Source of the DNA: an uncultured Gemmatimonadota bacterium | GTDB taxonomy: Bacteria; JAAXHH01 | DNA length: 64,000 bases | Direction: 5' to 3' | Assembly (NCBI GenBank): GCA_951812955.1 | Contig: OX638340.1 | Coordinates: 416,001 to 480,000 of the forward strand | Shown here: positions 3,433 to 13,112 of the stretch, in pieces | How positions within the stretch are numbered: the stretch's first letter is position 1 | How the letters are laid out: every line of letters begins with the position of its first letter | Notes under the pieces: model-generated | What the model saw: only the letters and a program-made list of their open reading frames with translations | Told to the model about the DNA's origin: nothing | Database searches by the model: none | Program-made: the position numbers and the translations under genes

Positions 3433-3454
3433 GTTAAAACTCCAGATAAACCCC

Positions 3455-3483
3455 TTGACGAAACGTACCGTTTCCGTTATATG
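3455..3483 (+). promoter_or_regulatory. Candidate sigma70-type promoter for the TPR-protein gene
   Basis: TTGACG, a 17-nt spacer, then TATATG, about 130 nt upstream of ATG 3611. It shares a divergent region with the ilvB promoter. Confidence 0.35.
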
Positions 3484-3610
3484 TTCTAGGCTTTGCGCCA
3501 GCGGTCGGATCCGCTGTCCGTTCGGCGTTTAGCCAGCACGATACACAGCGGTTTAAGGCGGTTTCTAACCGGCGAATTACTCGACGAAACTTCGCAGGAG
3601 GTCCGGGTCG

Positions 3611-4282
3611 ATGGCAAGAACGAGACGGCGCATCAGCCGTCGTGAAATGAAGGAAGACCGATTCATTCTCTGGCTGTACGAGTTGAGCAGCGAGATCGAC
3701 AAGCACTGGAAAACGCTCACGGCGGCTGCCGTCGCTGTGGTCGTCTGCGTGGCCGGCTGGTATTACTGGACAAACAAGCAGACCGATGACATAGTCGAGG
3801 CGGGACGGATACTCGCGCCGGGGCAGACGGCGATGCAGAATAATCGCTATGAAGACGCCATTCCCATGTTCGAGCGGGTCGTGAACGAATTCGGCGGGAC
3901 CGCTCTTGCCCTCGAGGCCACGATCGAACTGGCCAACGCTTGTTTCCAAGCCGGCGACGTTGAGAAGGCACGCACCTACTATCAAAAATACCTCGACGAA
4001 TACGGCAGTCAGAACGCGTATTTCTGGATGGCCGCACGCTCCGGCCTGGCCGCCTGTGACGAAGAGGAAGAGAAGTACGAGGAAGCGGCCAACCAGTATC
4101 TCGCCCTGGTGGACGAAGATCCGGACAGCTATCTCGCCCCCGGTTTTCTCCTGGATGCCGCTCGATGTTTCAGCGCCGCTGAACAGAAGGACCAGGCAAG
4201 GGCCCTGTACGACCGTGTGGTTGATACCTACGAATCCACGCCTTACGCCCGGGAAGCCCGGATCGCGTTGACCGCGCTCTAA
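3611..4282 (+). CDS. Membrane-anchored tetratricopeptide-repeat protein (YfgM-like, uncharacterised)
   Basis: 223 aa. There is one N-terminal TM helix (TLTAAAVAVVVCVAGWYYW) followed by TPR-like helical repeats. A CAGGAGG RBS lies 8 nt upstream. Confidence 0.55.
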   Translation: MARTRRRISRREMKEDRFILWLYELSSEIDKHWKTLTAAAVAVVVCVAGWYYWTNKQTDDIVEAGRILAPGQTAMQNNRYEDAIPMFERVVNEFGGTALALEATIELANACFQAGDVEKARTYYQKYLDEYGSQNAYFWMAARSGLAACDEEEEKYEEAANQYLALVDEDPDSYLAPGFLLDAARCFSAAEQKDQARALYDRVVDTYESTPYAREARIALTAL

Positions 4283-4390
4283 TCGACCGCATTCCAGTTG
4301 ACTGCGTCCTAGTTGCCCGCGTTCCAGCGGAGATCGCGTGGTCCGAACGCACCCCTCGCGTTGACTGCGCGCTAACGGAGATCGCGTGAA
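4255..4390. repeat. Mosaic of short direct repeats copying the 3' end of the TPR gene. It extends into the RBS and GTG start of the next gene.
   Basis: Block cgcgttgacYgcgcKctaa occurs at 4264-4282 (the TPR gene stop) and at 4358-4376. Block cggagatcgcgtg occurs at 4328-4340 and at 4376-4388; the second copy provides the GGAG RBS and GTG start of the downstream aminotransferase. Block gcRttccag occurs twice. Confidence 0.45.
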
Positions 4391-5525
4391 GGTTACCAAC
4401 TTCGCCCCCGGCCCCACACCGGTTCCGGATCGAGTCGTCCGAAAGATGTCGGAACCGGTCCTCACCCACCGATCCAGTGAATTCAGCGGCCTGCTGAGAC
4501 AAGTCACGTCGGGACTGCAGCACGTTTTCCAGACAGAGAACGATGTGCTCGTACTTACGGCCTCCGGCAGCGGCGCCATGGAAGCCGCCGTCGTCAACCT
4601 GCTGTCGCCGGGAGACCGCGTACTGGCGATCAGCGGAGGCAAATTCGGTAGTAGATGGGTCGAACTGTGCGAGACCTTCGGCCTGGACGCCCTGACCTTA
4701 GACGTGGCGTGGGGAAAGGCCGCCGATCCGGATGAAATCGACCGGATCCTGGCTGAGCGGGGACCCTTCGAGGCCGTGCTGGCCACCCATAGCGAAACAT
4801 CGACCGGCGTGCTGCACGACATCGAGGCCCTGGGGAATGTCGTTCGCGGTCACGGCTGCTATTTTGTCGTGGACGCAATCAGTGGACTCGGGGCCAACGA
4901 GCTGAAGACGGACGAATGGCACGTCGACGTGGCCCTGACGGGATCGCAGAAAGCGCTCATGGTCCCGCCCGGCCTCGCCTTTATCAGCGTCAGCGAACGG
5001 GCATGGAAGGGTATAGAGAGAAACACTCTCCCGTCCTATTATCTCAATCTGAAACGGGCCAGAGATTCCTTCTCTAAGGGGCTCACGCCCTATACGCCCG
5101 CCGTTTCGCTGCTCATGGGACTGGCCGAGTCACTGAGGATGATGAAGGAACTCGGACTGGAAGATATCTACCGGATTCACGAAAGAAACGCCCTGGTGAC
5201 CCGTGCGGGCGTCGCTGCGCTCGGGCTGAGGGTTTTCGCCCAGCGCCCTTCCAACGTACTGACTTCCGTATCCATGCCGCCCGGCATCGACGGCTCCGAG
5301 CTGCTGAAGACGATCAAACAGGATTGCGGCGTGACTATCGCCAACGGAATGGAGCACTTCAGGGGCAAATACATCCGCATCGCCCACCTGGGCTACGACA
5401 TCGCCCCTTCGGACATGCTGGTTGCGCTATCGGCACTCGAGCACGGCCTGAGCCGCCACGGGTACGCGTTCGAATCCGGCGCGGGTATCGCCGCGGCACA
5501 GCGGGTGATCCTCGAGACGGGGTAA
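4386..5525 (+). CDS. Class V pyridoxal-phosphate aminotransferase (serine-pyruvate / alanine-glyoxylate aminotransferase family)
   Basis: 379 aa with a GTG start. The fold-type I AGT-like pattern (TGSQKALMVPPGLAF) has a Lys in the SQK motif. The length matches AGXT/SgaA proteins. Confidence 0.8.
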   Translation: MKVTNFAPGPTPVPDRVVRKMSEPVLTHRSSEFSGLLRQVTSGLQHVFQTENDVLVLTASGSGAMEAAVVNLLSPGDRVLAISGGKFGSRWVELCETFGLDALTLDVAWGKAADPDEIDRILAERGPFEAVLATHSETSTGVLHDIEALGNVVRGHGCYFVVDAISGLGANELKTDEWHVDVALTGSQKALMVPPGLAFISVSERAWKGIERNTLPSYYLNLKRARDSFSKGLTPYTPAVSLLMGLAESLRMMKELGLEDIYRIHERNALVTRAGVAALGLRVFAQRPSNVLTSVSMPPGIDGSELLKTIKQDCGVTIANGMEHFRGKYIRIAHLGYDIAPSDMLVALSALEHGLSRHGYAFESGAGIAAAQRVILETG

Positions 5526-5628: not shown

Positions 5629-7155
5629 TTACTTTTTCAGTTCGCGGATCTCGATATTGCCGTCGCTCGTCTCCAGCCAGATCCGGGTGCCGCCGCCGTT
5701 AAGCGCATACGTAGCGCTGATCTCTCCTTCTTCCGCGTCTTCCTCGTAGCGCTCCGCTTCCAGATCGGATCGGATCTTGTATCGCAGTGAATTTCTGACG
5801 TTACTCCGGTTGGAATGGATCACCTTCTTCTTCACTTCGACAGATTTCCTCTGTTTACTTGATAACTCCTGCCGGGCTTCCTGTAATACCTGCTGGGCTT
5901 CCTGCAATTCCCGTTGCATCTCTCGCAGGAACCGTTGCGCCTCTTCGGCTGACATCTGTAACGCCTGGTTCGCGCTCTGCGTCAGCTTTTCAATGATCTC
6001 GTTCAACTTCTCCTCGTCGATCTCCGTATCCGACAGATCGAGGTCGATCGTTGGAATCTCGGGTAATTCGGGCAGGTCGGCAGTTGTGACTACACGTGCG
6101 CGAACGGTTTTGCCGGAGGGATCAACAAACACCCCGAATCCCTCGTCCACGTGGATCCGCGCTTCGATGGTCGCCTTCGCTCCCGGATCCACGTAGAGTA
6201 CAATGTCGCCGCCGGCCGAAATAAGCGAACTGCCCTCTGAACCCTCCGGCGTGATTTCGGCCAGGACGTCGCCGCCTGCGGTCCTCGCGTCGATCGTCCC
6301 CGTTACGTTCAACAGCTCCAATTCGCCACCGGCGGTTTTCGCCTGGACGGCACCCTTCGCGTTTTGCAATTCGATATCTCCGCCGGCTGTCGTGATACGG
6401 GCGTTCGCCGAAAGCTCGTCGATCTCTATATCGCCTCCGGACGTCCTGATACGGGCCTCGCCACCTACAAACTCAATGGTGATGTCTCCGCCGGAAGTCT
6501 GGGCTTCCAGCGAATTGCCGACGCGGCCGATCCGGATATCTCCGCCGGAAGTCTGGACATCCAGGTCGGACGATGCCTCTTCGACCCGGATATCACCCCC
6601 GGACGTCTGCAGATGAACGTCGCCACCAATAGTGCCAACGTGGATGTCGCCTCCCGATGTGGTCAACTCCACTTCACCGCCGATATCCCGAAGCGTTACG
6701 TCGCCGCCCGACGTATGACTCTTCACGTCGCCCTTCAGATCGCCGACGACCTCGATATCGCCACCACCGGTGCGCAGGTCCAGGTCGAACTCCTCGGGCA
6801 GATCGATCTTGAAACGCAGCCCCTGTCTTCTGTTGAATGACCGTCTGGGAAAACGCGGGTCGTAATCGACACGCAGTATGCCCCCGTCGTAGCGTATTCT
6901 GAGGTCACTTTCTATGTTTGGCGGGATGCCCTGGACGGTCACGACCGCTTCATCCTTCCTCCACGTGGAGATGGTGATGTCGCCCGCCCGGGTGTTCAGA
7001 TCGAGCCGCTCGCCCCTTTCCACCTGGAAGGTCTCAGACCGGCTGCTGCCGGCGGCCCTGTTCTGATCCTCCGTGAGTGCCAGGGCTTGTTGCGCCAGGG
7101 CTTGCTGCGAAAAAATCAAAATGCCGAATGTGCAGACCAGAAACCTCATAATCAC
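5629..7155 (-). CDS. Secreted DUF4097-family repeat protein (putative adhesin / beta-helix) with a C-terminal coiled-coil region
   Basis: 508 aa. It has a signal peptide, more than 12 reiterated TSGGDI(x) repeat units, then a charged helical tail. It is the third gene of the sigma/anti-sigma operon. Confidence 0.75.
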   Translation of the reverse strand: MIMRFLVCTFGILIFSQQALAQQALALTEDQNRAAGSSRSETFQVERGERLDLNTRAGDITISTWRKDEAVVTVQGIPPNIESDLRIRYDGGILRVDYDPRFPRRSFNRRQGLRFKIDLPEEFDLDLRTGGGDIEVVGDLKGDVKSHTSGGDVTLRDIGGEVELTTSGGDIHVGTIGGDVHLQTSGGDIRVEEASSDLDVQTSGGDIRIGRVGNSLEAQTSGGDITIEFVGGEARIRTSGGDIEIDELSANARITTAGGDIELQNAKGAVQAKTAGGELELLNVTGTIDARTAGGDVLAEITPEGSEGSSLISAGGDIVLYVDPGAKATIEARIHVDEGFGVFVDPSGKTVRARVVTTADLPELPEIPTIDLDLSDTEIDEEKLNEIIEKLTQSANQALQMSAEEAQRFLREMQRELQEAQQVLQEARQELSSKQRKSVEVKKKVIHSNRSNVRNSLRYKIRSDLEAERYEEDAEEGEISATYALNGGGTRIWLETSDGNIEIRELKK

Positions 7156-7179
7156 TACTCCTTTGTCGGCCGCGTTCCG

Positions 7180-8175
7180 TTAAGGTGCGGGCAGGTTGCT
7201 AAGCACGGTCCTCGCCCTGGTGCGGATATAGGCGTTTTCGTCGGAAACCATCCGGGCCCTTAGTACCCTTTCCAGGTCTTCGTCGATCGAGGTCGGCACC
7301 TGCTCCTGCAGCCGGTTGATCGCGTTGATTCTGAGGGCCGGATTCTCGTCGAAGACCAGTGTGTGGATCATGGCGTCTCTGATCCCCTCGTCAAAAGGAT
7401 ACCGGGAGAGGGCGTTGAACGCCTCGCCCCTGACCCCGGCATTCGAGTCCGTTTTCAAGGCGGTGACGAGGGCATCCTTGATCTCATGCTCCGAATGCAG
7501 GATTTCGGAATCGCTCACGGCGTTCACCGCCCGCAGCCGGACGCCGGGATTCTGTTCATTAAGTACGGCAAAGGTGAGTACACGTTGTATGCCGGGATCG
7601 TCGAGCGTTCCTCTGATCTGCACGGGCCGGACGGCTTCGAACTGGAATTCCAACATGCCATCGGGGGCGCCGGAATCCACGAACCGAACGTTTGAAATGG
7701 CCACGTCGTCATTGGTCAACAGGTCCGTCTGATCCATGCCCGGCGTCGCGAATCCAATGGAACGGTCTCCCTGGAAGGCCAGGTAGTAACCGGCAACCAG
7801 GCCGATGAACAACAGCAGTGCTCCCCCGAGGACGGAGCGGTAGGAAGGAAAGGTGTTTATCGTAACCCTTTGCAAGCCGTCTACTATGCGACCTGCCCAC
7901 CCGCTTGGGATGTGGAGACCCGGGCGGCCGAGTGTCACGTTGGACCAAAATCGGTTTCGAGCTTCATTCAGGTCTGCCGCACCAGGCCTGGCAGGGGCGG
8001 CTTCCCCCATGACCAGTCTGAATTCATCCAGACGGGCGCGGTACGCCCGGCATTGATCACATGATTCGAGATGGACGTCCAACCGCCGCTGATCTGCATC
8101 GGACAATTCACCGTATTGGGAGAGTTCCAGCCATTCTTCCCATTTCGTGTGAGACCGGCTCCTGTCTTCTTTCAT
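7180..8175 (-). CDS. Anti-sigma factor with an N-terminal zinc-finger (HxxxCxxC-type) and a C-terminal HEAT-repeat domain
   Basis: The ORF track gives 7180..8253. The likely start is ATG 8175 (MKEDRS...), overlapping the sigma stop as ATGA. Residues HLESCDQC resemble the zf-HC2 anti-sigma motif. There is a central TM segment (LLLFIGLVAGYYLAF) and HEAT-like repeats (ALRINAINRL, VRLRAVNAV). Confidence 0.65.
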   Translation of the reverse strand: MKEDRSRSHTKWEEWLELSQYGELSDADQRRLDVHLESCDQCRAYRARLDEFRLVMGEAAPARPGAADLNEARNRFWSNVTLGRPGLHIPSGWAGRIVDGLQRVTINTFPSYRSVLGGALLLFIGLVAGYYLAFQGDRSIGFATPGMDQTDLLTNDDVAISNVRFVDSGAPDGMLEFQFEAVRPVQIRGTLDDPGIQRVLTFAVLNEQNPGVRLRAVNAVSDSEILHSEHEIKDALVTALKTDSNAGVRGEAFNALSRYPFDEGIRDAMIHTLVFDENPALRINAINRLQEQVPTSIDEDLERVLRARMVSDENAYIRTRARTVLSNLPAP

Positions 8176-8831
8176 TTTCGTATGTCCTCGAGTTGACTGC
8201 GCAGTCTTCGGGTGGCATCGAAAAGGTATTTCTTTACCGTGCCTTCGGCACATTCCATGATTCCCGCTATCTCCCTCAGTTTGAATCCTTCGTGGTGGCG
8301 CAACACAAACACCGTTCGCAGACGGGGAGAAAGTGTACCGACGGCGGACCGGATCCGCGAAGCGATTTCGCTGTTGATGACTGCCGCGTCCGGCCGTTCG
8401 GGGGTAACGGGCGTAACACCGTAAGTGACCGTAGCCTGGTTTTCGTCGAACTTGTCTTCGATAGGGATGAACCGCCTGGTCCGGTTCCGCGACCGATGCG
8501 TGAGGCAGACATTGGTGACGATCCGGTACAGGTAGGTGGAAAACCGGCTGCGGAATTCGAAATCGGGCAGTGCCTTGAATACACGCATGAAGACTTCCTG
8601 GTATACATCCTTTGCGTCGTCCAGGTCGCCCACGAAGGACACGGCCATGGACAGCACTTTCTCGTCGTATCTGTATACGAGTTCTTCCAGGGCCCGCATG
8701 TCGCCTCCCCGGGCCTTGAGAATCAGCCTGCGCTCCTCCAGGTCCGTGCGATTTCCTGCCGAATCGTTATCCATGTGCTCTTCCCGATCATCCGGTGCGA
8801 TTCGGCCGTCGAGTTTACGGGCAGTTTCCAC
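8172..8831 (-). CDS. ECF-family RNA polymerase sigma-70 factor (sigma-24 type)
   Basis: The sigma-70 region 2 pattern (LEELVYRYDEKVLSMAVSFVGDLDDAKDVYQEVFMRVFKAL) and region 4 HTH (LSPRLRTVFVLRHHEGFKLREIAGIMECAEGTVKKYL) are present. The start may be GTG 8831 or ATG 8775. Confidence 0.85.
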   Translation of the reverse strand: METARKLDGRIAPDDREEHMDNDSAGNRTDLEERRLILKARGGDMRALEELVYRYDEKVLSMAVSFVGDLDDAKDVYQEVFMRVFKALPDFEFRSRFSTYLYRIVTNVCLTHRSRNRTRRFIPIEDKFDENQATVTYGVTPVTPERPDAAVINSEIASRIRSAVGTLSPRLRTVFVLRHHEGFKLREIAGIMECAEGTVKKYLFDATRRLRSQLEDIRK

Positions 8832-9508
8832 GTGGTTACCTGGTCACGTCGTGGTGCATGTGCGTGTAACTAAACTTCGAGAAACTTGCTGTCTCCGATC
8901 GGGCGCTTGGTGACCATGTGCGGGCACCTGATGATGACCTTTCTCGAGCCCTTGTGACTTTACGCTGGCGCGTGGCGCCTGGAATCCATATGCGGGATGC
9001 GGGCGCTTTATGTTCATGAGACCGTGTCTACATCGAATTGGTTGTGGACTAACGCGTTTTTTTAAAAGGAGACCGCGGGAGTATGCGGCGTATACACGAT
9101 CAACACGGTGCGCAATGCAGTCTTTAGGTGATTCAACGCACGGGAACGAGGAAAGTCGAGGGAATTACGGTTGAGGCATGTGGCGATGTGACGATACTGG
9201 CGTGTGGCGAGGTCTGTCCGGCGGACCGGATTCGAGTTCATGATCGTCAGTAAAGGCAGGAATGAGCTGGAAGGTGTTTGAAGGAGCGGGAAGGAGCTGG
9301 ACGAGCATATAACCAAAGGAATCAAAGACTTACGAATCCCAAGAAGGCAGGACGCCAGCGGCAGAGCAAGGATCTGCCGACTGGTCGGAATCGATCGACA
9401 TGATCGGAATCCGTTGTGTCAATAGCCGGAGGGTGGCCATTCAATCCGGTCGGTGGAACCGCACGAATTTTACGCAACCGGAAACAGGCCGCTCGATACG
9501 ACAGGCGT

Positions 9509-9703
9509 TCAGCCGTCCTTCGAGGTAGACGAACCTGACGTATTCTGATTCTCTTCGGCGGGCTCTTTCTTCTGTGCTTTCTTGAATTCGGTGATCCCCT
9601 GGCCCAATCCCTTGGCCAGTTCAGGGAGCTTCTTCGCGCCAAATAGGACCATGACGATTACAAGAATAATAATCAGTTCGGTCGTGCCGAAACTACCGAG
9701 CAT
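9509..9703 (-). CDS. tatA: Twin-arginine translocase subunit TatA/E
   Basis: 64 aa. An N-terminal TM helix followed by an amphipathic helix ([30 protein letters not shown]) is the TatA hallmark. A perfect GAGGAGG RBS is present. Confidence 0.85.
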
Positions 9704-9922
9704 TTAAATCACCTCCTCAGAACGCAGGATACCTTTATTGCCCTGGTTTGTCAAGCGGCAATAAAAGGACTTCCATTCTGCCGCTTAGCTGCCAACGACC
9801 CGGCGCAGTCGCATGGGCATGCCGTTTAGAATACTTGCATAGAAGCAATTTGCGTGTTTACTTATTCCCTGACCACAAATTTTGAAGTCGCTGCCGGTTG
9901 ATTTTATACGTTCAAGGAGGAC

Positions 9923-10165
9923 ATGGTGACTGTACGCATTGTATACTGCGCTGATTGAAGCTATGAACAAGACGCCGCCGGGTTGGCGGTGAAATTACTT
10001 GAGTATTACAAACACGATATCGAGCAGTTGCAGCTTGTGCCTTCCGGGGGCGGCAGGTTCGAAGTCACCGTGGATGATTCGCTGATCTTCTCCAAACTGG
10101 GAACCGACCGGTTTCCCGAATACGGGGAGGTCAAGGACGCCATCGAGGCATCGATCGCGGGTTGA
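9923..10165 (+). CDS. SelW/Rdx-family selenoprotein with in-frame TGA (Sec) at 9956-9958. The ORF track shows only the 3' part, 9983..10165.
   Basis: ATG 9923 with an AAGGAGG RBS reads MVTVRIVYCAD-U-SYEQDAAGLAVKLLEYY...GGGRFEVTVDDSLIFSKLGTDRFPEYGEV. The CxxU redox motif and the G-FEV-V-G-L-FSK-GRFP core match the Rdx/SelW family. The frame is continuous across the TGA. Confidence 0.7.
9973..9991 (+). other. Candidate bacterial SECIS hairpin 15 nt downstream of the Sec-UGA
   Basis: cGCCGCC-GGGUU-GGCGGUg forms a 7-bp stem with a G-rich 5-nt apical loop, placed as a bacterial SECIS should be relative to UGA. Confidence 0.45.
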
Positions 10166-10273
10166 ACCGCAATCGACCGCCGCGGCGTCTATTAAGGATC
10201 CATAATCCAGGTCCGGACGCTTTTCCCGGCCCGGGCGCTTTTCCAGTCTATTGGTCTGAGGACAGAGGTTAGT

Positions 10274-10615
10274 ATGAATATCTACGTTGCGCTGGAAGAC
10301 GAGATCGCCGTGCTTCGCATCGAGGGCAGATTGTGGGAAGAAGGAGACAGCGTTGAGCTGGATCGGATGATCGACGATACCCTTGACCGGGGATGCACGC
10401 GGTTCGTTGCCGATTTGACCGGCGTGCCCATCATGAACAGTTCCGGGTTGGGTTCGCTGATCGCGGCCATGAAGAAAATACGTTCCAGGTCCGGGGAGAT
10501 GGTGCTCACCGGCGTCAACGACCGCCTGGATCAACTGTTCCGGATCACCCGGCTGTACACGGTCTTCAAGAAGTATGACGATGTGGACGCCGCCGTGGAA
10601 AACATGCATGCCTGA
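10274..10615 (+). CDS. STAS-domain protein (SpoIIAA-like anti-sigma-factor antagonist)
   Basis: 113 aa. A conserved phosphorylatable Ser sits in the NSSGLGSL context. The STAS fold pattern matches RsbV/SpoIIAA. Confidence 0.8.
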   Translation: MNIYVALEDEIAVLRIEGRLWEEGDSVELDRMIDDTLDRGCTRFVADLTGVPIMNSSGLGSLIAAMKKIRSRSGEMVLTGVNDRLDQLFRITRLYTVFKKYDDVDAAVENMHA

Positions 10616-13112
10616 CTACCAGCCCCTGGACCTCACGCCGAGTTGCAACGCGCCCCGAAGCATTTACGATTCCATAACGGATCCTCCGCTCGGATCACAG
10701 GAATTCTATGGTCTTCCCTTTCAAATCGGCGACGGCGCCGGAGATTCCGACTGTTTCGTCGGCTTCGGTGACCAGATCGGCTGCTCGTCCTCTCCCGCAG
10801 CGATTCCCGTCGAAAGTTCCGCCGTCAACGTGATCTTCGCCCACGCGGTGATCCGTTCGGAAATCGAGGCCGGCGGTCCGATCGCCCTTCCCGTGGCCAC
10901 TTACCGGTTCATCTGGGACGACGGGCATGACGAGTCCGTTACGATCCGCGAGCGGTTCGAGATCGGCTACATGCCGCTGCCCTGGGGACAATACCCCTTC
11001 CTGTGCGTGCCCGATCAGAAGCCGGTTATTTACAACCGGTCCGGCGGCGATTGGAACGATGCCGGCCGCCGGCAGACCGAAGCCGAGCAGGGTTGGCCAC
11101 AGGGGTACTACCTCTGGGCATGGCGCAATCCCCGGCCCGACCAGGATATCCGTTCCATCGAAATCACGCCGCAGGGCCCACCTTTCGTCGTGGCCGCCAT
11201 CACGCTCGGCCATGTCGACGAAGATCCAATTTGCCGGTGGGCTGCCAGGGACGTCCAGGTCGAACTGAAAAACCCGAAGCGCGCGGAGAAACCCTTCGAC
11301 CTCGAAGTCGAAGTCGACCGCGGCTACGCCACATACGCCTATCCACTGCCCGGGCAGGTCGACCAGGCCTTCATGAACGACACCCACCGCGGATGGGGCC
11401 AGGCGGACAGCAACCGCTCCAGTCCCGCCCATGTTGGCGTGGCTGGCACGCCGTCGGCCACGGTGACCGTAAAACAGGACGGGAAGGCGGTCGGGTCGGC
11501 TAACTGGGGCGAGCTGGAAGCGAAAGAGGTAGTCGATACGCCCGCGGTTCGATTCGAGGTCATCGACACGGGACGAAACTGGGTACACACCACGGTCCTG
11601 GACGACGAGACCGGCCACCCCGTGCCCTGCCGTGTGCATTTTCGATCTGCCAAGGGTGTGCCGTACGCGCCCCACGGCCACCACGCCCACGTGAATTCGA
11701 ACCTGGATACCTGGCACGTGGACGTGGGCGGCGACGTCAGGCTGGGACAGATGTCCTATGCGTACATCGACGGCAGGTGCCAGGGCTGGCTGCCCCGGGG
11801 CGAGGTGCACGTGGACGTGGCCCGGGGATTCGAATATGAGCCGATTCGCGAGTGCGTCACCATCGATCCCGGGCAACGCGAGCTTACCCTCAGGCTGAAG
11901 CGGTGGACCGATCTGAACGCGGAACGGTATTTCAGCGGCGACACCCACGTGCATTTCCTCTCCACCCAGGGCGCTCACCTGGAGGCCCAGGGGGAAGACC
12001 TGAACGTGGTCAATCTCCTGCTGTCCCAATGGGGAGGCCTTTTCACGAACACGGAGGAGTTCACCGGATCGGCGAGCGCGTCGCCGGACGGAGATACGAT
12101 CGTTTACGCCTCGCAGGAAAACCGGCAGCACATCCTGGGCCACCTTTCGCTCCTCGGCCTCAAAGAACCGGTCATGCCCTGGTGTTCGGACGGACCCGGT
12201 GAAGCGGAACTGGGAGGCAACCTGGAAACGACCCTGTCGTACTGGGCCGACGCCTGCCATGCGCAGGGCGGGACGGTCGTGATTCCCCATATCCCCAATC
12301 CAAACTGCGAACCGGCGGTTCTCATCGCCACGGACCGCGCCGACGCCGTGGAGATGCTGGTGCACAGCGAGTACAATCACCTCGAATACTACCGGTACCT
12401 GAACTGCGGCTACCGTCTGCCGCTCACGGGCGGGACGGACAAGATGTCCAGCGACGTGCCCGTGGGGATCTACCGGACCTATGCCTACATCCCGCCGGAC
12501 GAGCCCTTTACCTACGACAACTGGTGCAAGGCGCTGCGCGGCGGCAACACCTTCCTGAGCGCGGGACCCATCATCCGGTTCACGGTGAACGGCCGGCCGA
12601 TCGGCGATACGGTAAATCTACCCGGCAACGGCGGGACGGTGGAGATCGAGGCGTCGGCGGATTCGACCCTGCCGATCCATACCCTGGAAATCGTGCAGCA
12701 GGGCAAGGTCGTCGCCGCTACGGAAGAGATGAAAGGCGTCCGCCGGTTATCGCTCAAGACCTCCCTGAAGATTGAAAGCCACACGTGGCTGGCGGCCCGG
12801 TGCGCCGGACCGAACTACTCCAGCGTACCGCACCACGACGGCTGGCGCCGCGGCATCATGGCCCATACGTCGCCGGTATACGTGGCCTGCGGCGGCCCCT
12901 ACTGGCTGTTCGACCTGGAAAACGCCCAGTACATGCTGAGCCTGATCGAAGGGGGCCTTTCCTACATCAAGCGTCGAAGTTGGCAACACAAGCCGGAAAC
13001 GACCACCCACCACCACGGCGGCGACGACCACGAAGCCTTTCTCGAAGCCCCATACCTGCAGGCGCGGGAAGCCATCCACCGCCGCATGCACGAACTGAAC
13101 ATCCCGCATTGA
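10608..13112 (+). CDS. Large uncharacterised cytoplasmic protein (about 835 aa). Its C-terminal half resembles a PHP / CehA-McbA-like metal-dependent hydrolase.
   Basis: The ORF track gives 10575..13112. The ATG at 10608 overlaps the STAS stop (ATGCCTGA). The GDTHVHF motif plus downstream His/Asp clusters (HHAHV, QHILGH, EYNH) are typical of PHP-superfamily metallohydrolases. The N-terminal 400 aa resemble nothing I recognise. Confidence 0.5.
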   Translation: MPDYQPLDLTPSCNAPRSIYDSITDPPLGSQEFYGLPFQIGDGAGDSDCFVGFGDQIGCSSSPAAIPVESSAVNVIFAHAVIRSEIEAGGPIALPVATYRFIWDDGHDESVTIRERFEIGYMPLPWGQYPFLCVPDQKPVIYNRSGGDWNDAGRRQTEAEQGWPQGYYLWAWRNPRPDQDIRSIEITPQGPPFVVAAITLGHVDEDPICRWAARDVQVELKNPKRAEKPFDLEVEVDRGYATYAYPLPGQVDQAFMNDTHRGWGQADSNRSSPAHVGVAGTPSATVTVKQDGKAVGSANWGELEAKEVVDTPAVRFEVIDTGRNWVHTTVLDDETGHPVPCRVHFRSAKGVPYAPHGHHAHVNSNLDTWHVDVGGDVRLGQMSYAYIDGRCQGWLPRGEVHVDVARGFEYEPIRECVTIDPGQRELTLRLKRWTDLNAERYFSGDTHVHFLSTQGAHLEAQGEDLNVVNLLLSQWGGLFTNTEEFTGSASASPDGDTIVYASQENRQHILGHLSLLGLKEPVMPWCSDGPGEAELGGNLETTLSYWADACHAQGGTVVIPHIPNPNCEPAVLIATDRADAVEMLVHSEYNHLEYYRYLNCGYRLPLTGGTDKMSSDVPVGIYRTYAYIPPDEPFTYDNWCKALRGGNTFLSAGPIIRFTVNGRPIGDTVNLPGNGGTVEIEASADSTLPIHTLEIVQQGKVVAATEEMKGVRRLSLKTSLKIESHTWLAARCAGPNYSSVPHHDGWRRGIMAHTSPVYVACGGPYWLFDLENAQYMLSLIEGGLSYIKRRSWQHKPETTTHHHGGDDHEAFLEAPYLQAREAIHRRMHELNIPH

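Follow-up and report, generated by a model that had tools for sequence, protein, structure and literature searches.

Our analysis of a 64,000-nucleotide stretch of DNA from an uncultured Gemmatimonadota bacterium (the window, with a G+C content of 60.6%) leads us to conclude, with high confidence, that positions 9926-10165 of the forward strand are a translated gene for a SelW-like selenoprotein, in which an in-frame TGA is predicted to encode the selenocysteine (Sec) of a CxxU redox motif (Table 1). A mechanical listing of the ORFs reports only a 60-aa piece of this gene, starting at TTG 9983. The preliminary description of this DNA had pointed to that piece (9983-10165), to the in-frame TGA and to an ATG at 9923, and direct reading confirms all three: from ATG 9923 the frame runs through MVTVRIVYCAD, the TGA at 9956-9958 and SYEQDAAGLAVKLLEYYKHDIEQLQLVPSGGGRFEVTVDDSLIFSKLGTDRFPEYGEVKDAIEASIAG to a stop TGA at 10163-10165. 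With the first TGA read as Sec, the sequence of the redox centre is predicted to be ...IVYCAD-U-SYEQDAAGLAVK...; with the same codon read as Cys, the product from the ATG has 80 aa.

Table 1. Features of the gene and its surroundings, in positions of the window.
Feature	Position	Strand	Remarks
DUF4097 'toastrack' protein with FapA-like beta-solenoid	5629-7155	-	
zf-HC2 anti-sigma factor, C-terminal HEAT repeats	7180-8253	-	
ECF sigma factor	8172-8831	-	
Shine-Dalgarno AAGGAGG	9914-9920	+	direct reading; only conserved part of the 5' flank
SelW-like/Rdx selenoprotein CDS (predicted)	9926-10165	+	conserved GTG start, 79 codons and stop; in-frame ATG one codon 5' at 9923
TGC (Cys) of the CxxU redox motif	9947-9949	+	same codon in all 21 orthologues; counterpart of the first Cys of the CxxC in alignments to solved Rdx proteins
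In-frame TGA, predicted selenocysteine codon (U of CxxU)	9956-9958	+	conserved TGA/Cys column
SECIS-like hairpin, 7-bp stem and loop GGGUU	9973-9991	+	arms 9973-9979 and 9985-9991
TTG used as start by stop-codon-based ORF calling	9983-9985	+	inside the hairpin loop; CTG in 7/21 orthologues
True stop TGA	10163-10165	+	TGA in 19/21 orthologues, TAG or TAA in the other two

A single reading frame across the TGA

With the TGA translated as Cys, the product matches the Pfam family Rdx (PF10262) from end to end (profile positions 1-73 of 74), scoring 74.4 bits against a cut-off of 22.6 (E=8.2e-21), and it matches TIGR02174 (CXXU_selWTH) with 64.1 bits against a cut-off of 34.2. The assignment to the Rdx/SelW family made in the preliminary description is thus upheld. 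The 60-aa ORF covers profile positions 20-73 of PF10262 only (E=9.7e-13), and the residues upstream of its TTG contribute ∼26 bits to the match of the whole protein. Among NCBIfam models the top match was NF041051 (SelTWH_Campy), almost full-length, with 79.2 bits (E=2e-22); as this score lies under the equivalog cut-off of 88, we regard the protein as a member of the broader subfamily and not of the SelTWH_Campy equivalog. The solved structures of Cys-form Rdx proteins (2fa8, 2obk, 3dex, 2p0g, 2oka and 2ojl) align over residues 4-75, 2fa8 with E=7e-10, and their CxxC falls on the CxxU described here. Homology to these structures (2fa8) suggests a thioredoxin-like fold.

A search of the protein database returned 23 relatives, comprising 20 short calls of 45-60 aa and three proteins of apparently full length with W at the CxxU column. 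A scan of genomes, taking one genome per species, gave 49 loci. In 47 of them an in-frame TGA occupies this column and is flanked in both directions by recognisable protein sequence, and in two the residue is Cys (CADC and CSKC). The loci with TGA are from MAGs labelled Gemmatimonadota/Latescibacterota, Chloroflexota, Actinomycetota, Dormibacterota and others; the 20 close orthologues, which are 80-98% identical, are labelled Gemmatimonadota or Latescibacterota. By tblastn against plasmids and chromids we obtained two further TGA forms, one in Thermomicrobium roseum and one in Cytobacillus spongiae, as well as ten CxxC forms, the latter from Proteobacteria and Actinomycetota, bringing the totals at the column to 49 TGA forms and 12 Cys forms (TGC or TGT). 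An alignment to Cys-containing homologues, which the preliminary description had proposed as a check, therefore confirms the U/C column, and the TGA does stand at the second position of the CxxU motif, where it aligns with the CxxC of the solved Rdx proteins and of the 12 Cys homologues.

The pattern of substitution establishes that the sequences on the two sides of the TGA are parts of one coding frame. Across 21 distinct close orthologues, the numbers of variable sites at first, second and third codon positions are 2, 2 and 8 of 9 upstream of the TGA and 24, 14 and 55 of 68 downstream of it, with synonymous changes exceeding non-synonymous changes on both sides, while the flanks are variable at 48 of 50 sites (5') and 60 of 60 sites (3'). 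Because the variation is biased towards third positions on both sides, we conclude that both halves are under coding constraint in a single frame. A real start downstream of the TGA, with no conservation across it, had been named in advance as an observation that would count against a selenoprotein; the upstream part proves instead to be conserved as coding sequence, its 2/2/8 standing against 48 of 50 in the flank.

The start of the gene needs some correction. The preliminary description had placed it at ATG 9923, with AAGGAGG in front at a spacing of 3 nt. Both the Shine-Dalgarno sequence and the in-frame ATG are present, but the spacer is 2 nt, and it is the following codon, GTG 9926, that is conserved. 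The codon at the position of the ATG is ACG, CTG, AGG or ATC in nine of 20 orthologues, whereas that at GTG 9926 is GTG in all of 21 except for one TTG. Upstream of the conserved GTG the orthologues have AAGGAGGA(C/A), at a spacing of 5 nt, and the region from -9 to -1 is variable at three of nine sites compared with 48 of 50 further upstream (21 orthologues). Since GTG or TTG is kept in all 21 orthologues while the ATG is replaced in nine of 20, we consider GTG 9926, with its 5-nt spacer, to be the likely start codon. Either codon could serve in this genome, with a difference of one residue in the product.

The hairpin downstream of the TGA

A SECIS-like hairpin with a 7-bp GC stem had been described downstream of the TGA. 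Its seven pairs, its loop GGGUU and its coordinates are as described, but the stem is made of six G-C pairs and one G·U. It begins at the 15th nt after the TGA. When the isolated hairpin is folded, its energy is -13.2 kcal/mol (z=-2.9), with one of 200 shuffles as stable; in a 60-nt context the corresponding values are z=-1.69 and 10 of 200 shuffles, and given this weaker signal we take the fold of the single sequence to be suggestive only.

In every TGA form the arms of the stem are found at +18 to +24 and +30 to +36 from the U of the UGA. The 38 distinct TGA sequences align without gaps, and 89.8% of the cells of this alignment form standard pairs in the register of the stem. All of 500 column shuffles fall below this value, and displacing the 3' arm by 1-3 nt lowers it to 20-69%. 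Compensatory changes are seen at two pairs, 23-31 (C-G, U-G and U-A) and 22-32 (G-C and A-U); the outermost pair of the stem takes all four Watson-Crick types, yet is often open. Changes on both sides occur in only three of the seven pairs and much of the stem is invariant. We judge the covariation to be real but modest, with the core of the stem appearing largely invariant.

Suppression of change at synonymous sites is the stronger argument for a constraint at the level of the RNA. In the 21 close orthologues the four-fold degenerate codons within the stem are fixed (Ala18 GCC, Ala19 GCC, Gly20 GGG and Ala22 GCG), while comparable codons elsewhere in the gene show a codon entropy of 1.3-1.9 bits (Mann-Whitney p=0.003 versus the stem). 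Leu21 varies at its first base alone, and this base is an unpaired position of the loop. The preliminary description had treated a lack of conservation of the hairpin in orthologous loci as grounds for doubt; in those loci we find that the hairpin keeps its register, that some of its pairs covary and that synonymous change is suppressed.

The loops of the TGA forms (GGUCU, GGGUU, GGGCU, AGUUU, AGGUU, AGUCU and CGUGC) all have a G within their first two nt. A stable hairpin lying directly 3' of the UGA, with a small apical loop that contains G, is the definition of a bacterial SECIS that we adopted from PMC1088965, and the hairpin described here has each of these properties. Its register is the same in all TGA forms and none of the shuffles is as paired, so that the earlier claim of a SECIS-like hairpin at the expected place holds.

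Comparison with the Cys forms is less simple. In-register pairs number on average 6.2 of 7 in TGA forms and 3.2 of 7 in Cys forms (p=4e-7), a contrast that is not phylogenetically independent, as the Cys forms make up a separate clade. For generic local foldability the difference between the two is not significant (mean z of -1.21 for TGA forms and -0.79 for Cys forms, p=0.11). We therefore rejected the use of Cys forms as a simple control without a hairpin: several of them fold locally, and only register and loop discriminate. Local hairpins of this kind, in a different register, are found at +11 to +46 from the second Cys codon of several Cys forms from Proteobacteria and Actinomycetota; one example is CUGCGCGCC...GGCGCAG, encoding L-R-A...A-Q, and a low-GC Cys form from Pseudoalteromonas has a 9-bp hairpin in the same region. 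No match to Rfam was found in the window at the gathering score, and a permissive Rfam scan of 9850-10250 returned only a chance match to an miRNA (E=0.79).

Proposed decoding of the TGA and alternative readings

In bacteria that use selenocysteine, SelD makes selenophosphate, SelA converts Ser-tRNA(Sec), and SelB bound to the SECIS loop performs the delivery. By analogy with this established pathway, translation of the gene would begin at GTG 9926 (or ATG 9923) behind AAGGAGG, and at UGA 9956-9958 the hairpin in the mRNA would recruit SelB carrying Sec-tRNA(Sec), so that Sec would be inserted at codon 12 rather than translation terminating there. Elongation would then run on to the ordinary stop TGA at 10163-10165. 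Given that TGA terminates the gene at this place in 19 of 21 orthologues, the same codon both ends the gene and, on our reading, is recoded 69 codons upstream. The product would be a small thiol/selenol oxidoreductase of 79 residues, probably cycling through a Cys9-Sec12 selenenylsulfide. The precise function of SelW-like proteins is unclear, and a redox role is suggested by the CxxU motif (PMC1088965).

No tRNA-Sec was found by ARAGORN in the 64-kb window or the 49 loci, and tblastn against the window and ∼860 kb of related loci found no homologue of selA, selB or selD; the queries were approximate E. coli SelA, SelB and SelD sequences and the actual SelD and SelA of C. spongiae. The only signal, a weak match to the SelB G domain in Dormibacterota loci, was rejected, being TypA/BipA (TIGR01394, 815 bits in one locus) and not SelB. 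In five Dormibacterota loci, a gene for a translational GTPase precedes the SelW-like gene at a distance of ∼0.6-2.6 kb. Since selA, selB, selD and tRNA-Sec are absent from the window and the ∼860 kb searched, it is by inference that we attribute Sec decoding to this organism and place selA, selB, selC and selD elsewhere in its genome. A screen of the window for further TGA read-through ORFs with a redox motif and a hairpin gave no convincing second selenoprotein.

Precedent for such decoding comes from two sources. In the cultured C. spongiae (NZ_CP089998.1, locus 7755-11166), a TGA-form SelW-like gene lies between selD and selA. The selD gene, on the minus strand, itself has an in-frame TGA (...SSKAG-TGA-GCK...); the SelW-like gene, at 9001-9207 of the locus, is unannotated, and an Hsp20 gene separates it from selA. 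The replicon is from a sponge isolate. Among bins of Aplysina aerophoba symbionts, SelA and SelB co-occur in most (Slaby et al. 2017, PMC5649159), and both sponge-associated Gemmatimonadetes bins have one copy each of SelA, SelB and SelD (PMC5649159, Table S4). These two bins have a G+C content above that of the window and belong to a different lineage; they are a precedent at the level of phylum and habitat only. Our search for literature on Gemmatimonadota and selenocysteine found nothing specific.

The alternative that survives best, although we consider it improbable, is that the UGA is read through with insertion of a residue other than Sec (Cys or Trp, by a near-cognate or suppressor tRNA) and that the hairpin is a general stimulator of read-through. 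The search for Sec machinery found none in the window and the related loci, as this alternative would have it, and the identity of the inserted residue is here a prediction from sequence. However, the column is the Sec position of an established selenoprotein family (PMC1088965, PMC2398784, PMC1794560), and both the position of the hairpin and its small loop containing G are those expected of a bacterial SECIS. Furthermore, the TGA form of C. spongiae lies between selD and selA, and SelA, SelB and SelD are found together in sponge-associated Gemmatimonadetes bins (PMC5649159), making us sceptical that anything other than Sec is inserted.

Less probable again is that the real product is the 60-aa ORF from TTG 9983 and that the in-frame sequence upstream of it is non-coding. 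This is the product reported by ORF callers and public records, where most homologues have 55-60 aa and that of T. roseum is a 60-aa entry. Yet the TTG lies in the loop of the hairpin and is CTG in seven of 21 orthologues, and hence is not a conserved start, and no Shine-Dalgarno sequence precedes it. The ten codons upstream vary in the 2/2/8 pattern, unlike the true non-coding flanks with their 48 of 50, and the 60-aa product would be without positions 1-19 of the Rdx profile, redox motif included. The comparative data disfavour this reading.

The two remaining alternatives are barely credible. Genome-wide reassignment of TGA to a sense codon (translation table 4 or 25) would agree with the W recorded at the CxxU column ('CADW') in three database proteins, P0001-P0003. 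However, the DNA at that position is TGA, and the W arises because these proteins were called with a code in which TGA is Trp; in P0001 the true TGA stop is also read through (GSE-TGA-PSITN), and P0001 and P0003 are on short ENA metagenome contigs. In the window, TGA is the commonest stop, ending 21 of the 41 ORFs of at least 200 aa, which excludes a reassigned code, and the SelW-like gene itself ends in TGA in nearly all orthologues. Our conclusion is that gene calling with TGA as Trp is an artefact, and one that masks selenoproteins as Trp-containing proteins. Finally, a pseudogene, in which the Cys codon of a decaying Rdx gene has mutated to TGA, would require one base change from TGC or TGT, but is refuted by the comparative data, given that 47 of 49 loci, from several phyla, have the TGA, that purifying selection acts on both its sides, and that synteny and a Shine-Dalgarno sequence are kept in 20 orthologous loci.

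Genomic setting and relation to known SelW-like proteins

The SelW-like gene is divergent from tatA and is followed on the plus strand by genes for a STAS-domain protein, an 845-aa protein without a Pfam match and a BCCT transporter. This gene order is kept in 20 of 20 close orthologous loci, and in the closest relative, the 3.9-Mb MAG chromosome OY762445.1, the neighbouring proteins are 93-100% identical. No terminator-like site was found on the plus strand between the SelW-like and STAS genes, which makes it possible that the two are co-transcribed. The 845-aa ORF (10575-13112, plus strand) occurs at the same position with 84-98% identity in most of the 20 loci, and, with the start as listed, its first 41 nt overlap the STAS gene. 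On the minus strand, 5629-8831 is an apparent ECF/anti-sigma/DUF4097 operon, which lies upstream of tatA in most orthologous loci, and a 462-aa ORF (3434-4822) has no Pfam match. A 204-aa antisense ORF (9995-10609, minus strand), which overlaps the SelW-like and STAS genes and is without support, is very likely a spurious product of G+C-rich sequence; in a naive longest-ORF gene map it supplants the real genes.

We put forward tentatively, and regard as rather doubtful, a joint proposal that the SelW-like clade has one family-wide SECIS and that the neighbourhood of selW ties it to a stress or partner-switching response. The SECIS, if real, would occupy the register +18 to +36 from the UGA, have a G-rich loop of 3-5 nt and no Rfam model, and occur in at least six phylum-level groups (Gemmatimonadota/Latescibacterota, Chloroflexota, Thermomicrobiota, Actinomycetota, Dormibacterota and Bacillota). 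For its part, the fixed neighbourhood, with tatA on one side and selW, STAS, the 845-aa gene and BCCT on the other, might link the gene to such a response in those members of the lineage that are associated with sponges. If the proposal is true, protein and RNA would be an ancient co-inherited module that could be curated and used for the systematic repair of shortened annotations.

The practical value of the gene lies in annotation. It had been expected that stop-codon-based callers would miss it, and this is what we observe, with only the 60-aa ORF called here and most database homologues having 45-60 aa; gene callers shorten the SelW-like gene, almost certainly because the in-frame TGA encodes selenocysteine. 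In the reference genome of the cultured T. roseum (NC_011961.1, 408173-408409), the 60-aa 'Rdx family protein' of RefSeq (WP_012642931.1) leaves out the first 54 nt of the homologous region; translated in frame, the DNA upstream gives IEYCTS-TGA-GYRGRA, and a hairpin comes next. Orthologues are likewise cut short or left out in at least 20 MAG records, and the same failure accounts for this T. roseum entry and the unannotated C. spongiae gene. The gene also marks an uncultured lineage as a probable user of selenocysteine, which agrees with SelA and SelB having been reported as enriched among sponge symbionts.

The fdhF-type SECIS of E. coli, which is bound by SelB and is familiar from the literature of the Böck laboratory, is a hairpin within the CDS just 3' of the UGA and at a fixed distance from it, with a short apical loop that contains G, usually as GU. 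The hairpin at 9973-9991 differs from it in sequence, has no evident bulged U and no match in Rfam, and is a putative target of SelB. The Cys-form Rdx proteins with solved structures, among them Agrobacterium Atu0228 (2fa8), are homologous over the residues aligned above but have Cys and not Sec, in a motif of the YCTQCNW type, are ∼20-25 residues longer, and are encoded by mRNAs without the in-register hairpin (mean of 3.2 of 7 pairs).

The closest comparison is with the bacterial SelW-like selenoproteins described by Zhang, Gladyshev and co-workers from the Sargasso Sea, from the GOS data and from genome surveys (PMC1088965, PMC2398784, PMC1794560). SelW-like proteins are the most abundant prokaryotic selenoprotein family both in the Sargasso Sea, with 48 Sec and 7 Cys forms (PMC1088965), and in GOS, with 427 Sec and 56 Cys forms (PMC2398784); marine samples are richer in them than non-marine ones (PMC1088965, PMC2398784), and Sec is regarded as the family's original form (PMC1794560). 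The family has thus been known in marine bacteria since 2005, and the gene described here is a further member of it together with an annotation gap, revealing no new mechanism and no new family. Like those proteins (PF10262, formerly PF05169; TIGR02174), it has the full-length domain, a CxxU motif with Sec predicted as the second redox residue, more Sec than Cys forms among its relatives, a hairpin directly 3' of the UGA and within the CDS with G in a small loop, and a marine or host-associated setting; nothing essential differs. The particulars of this orthologue group are the motif C-A-D-U, the loop GGGUU or GGGCU, and its occurrence in MAGs of uncultured Gemmatimonadota and Latescibacterota, several of them from sponges according to their isolate names, in which the protein is publicly annotated only as one of 55-60 aa.
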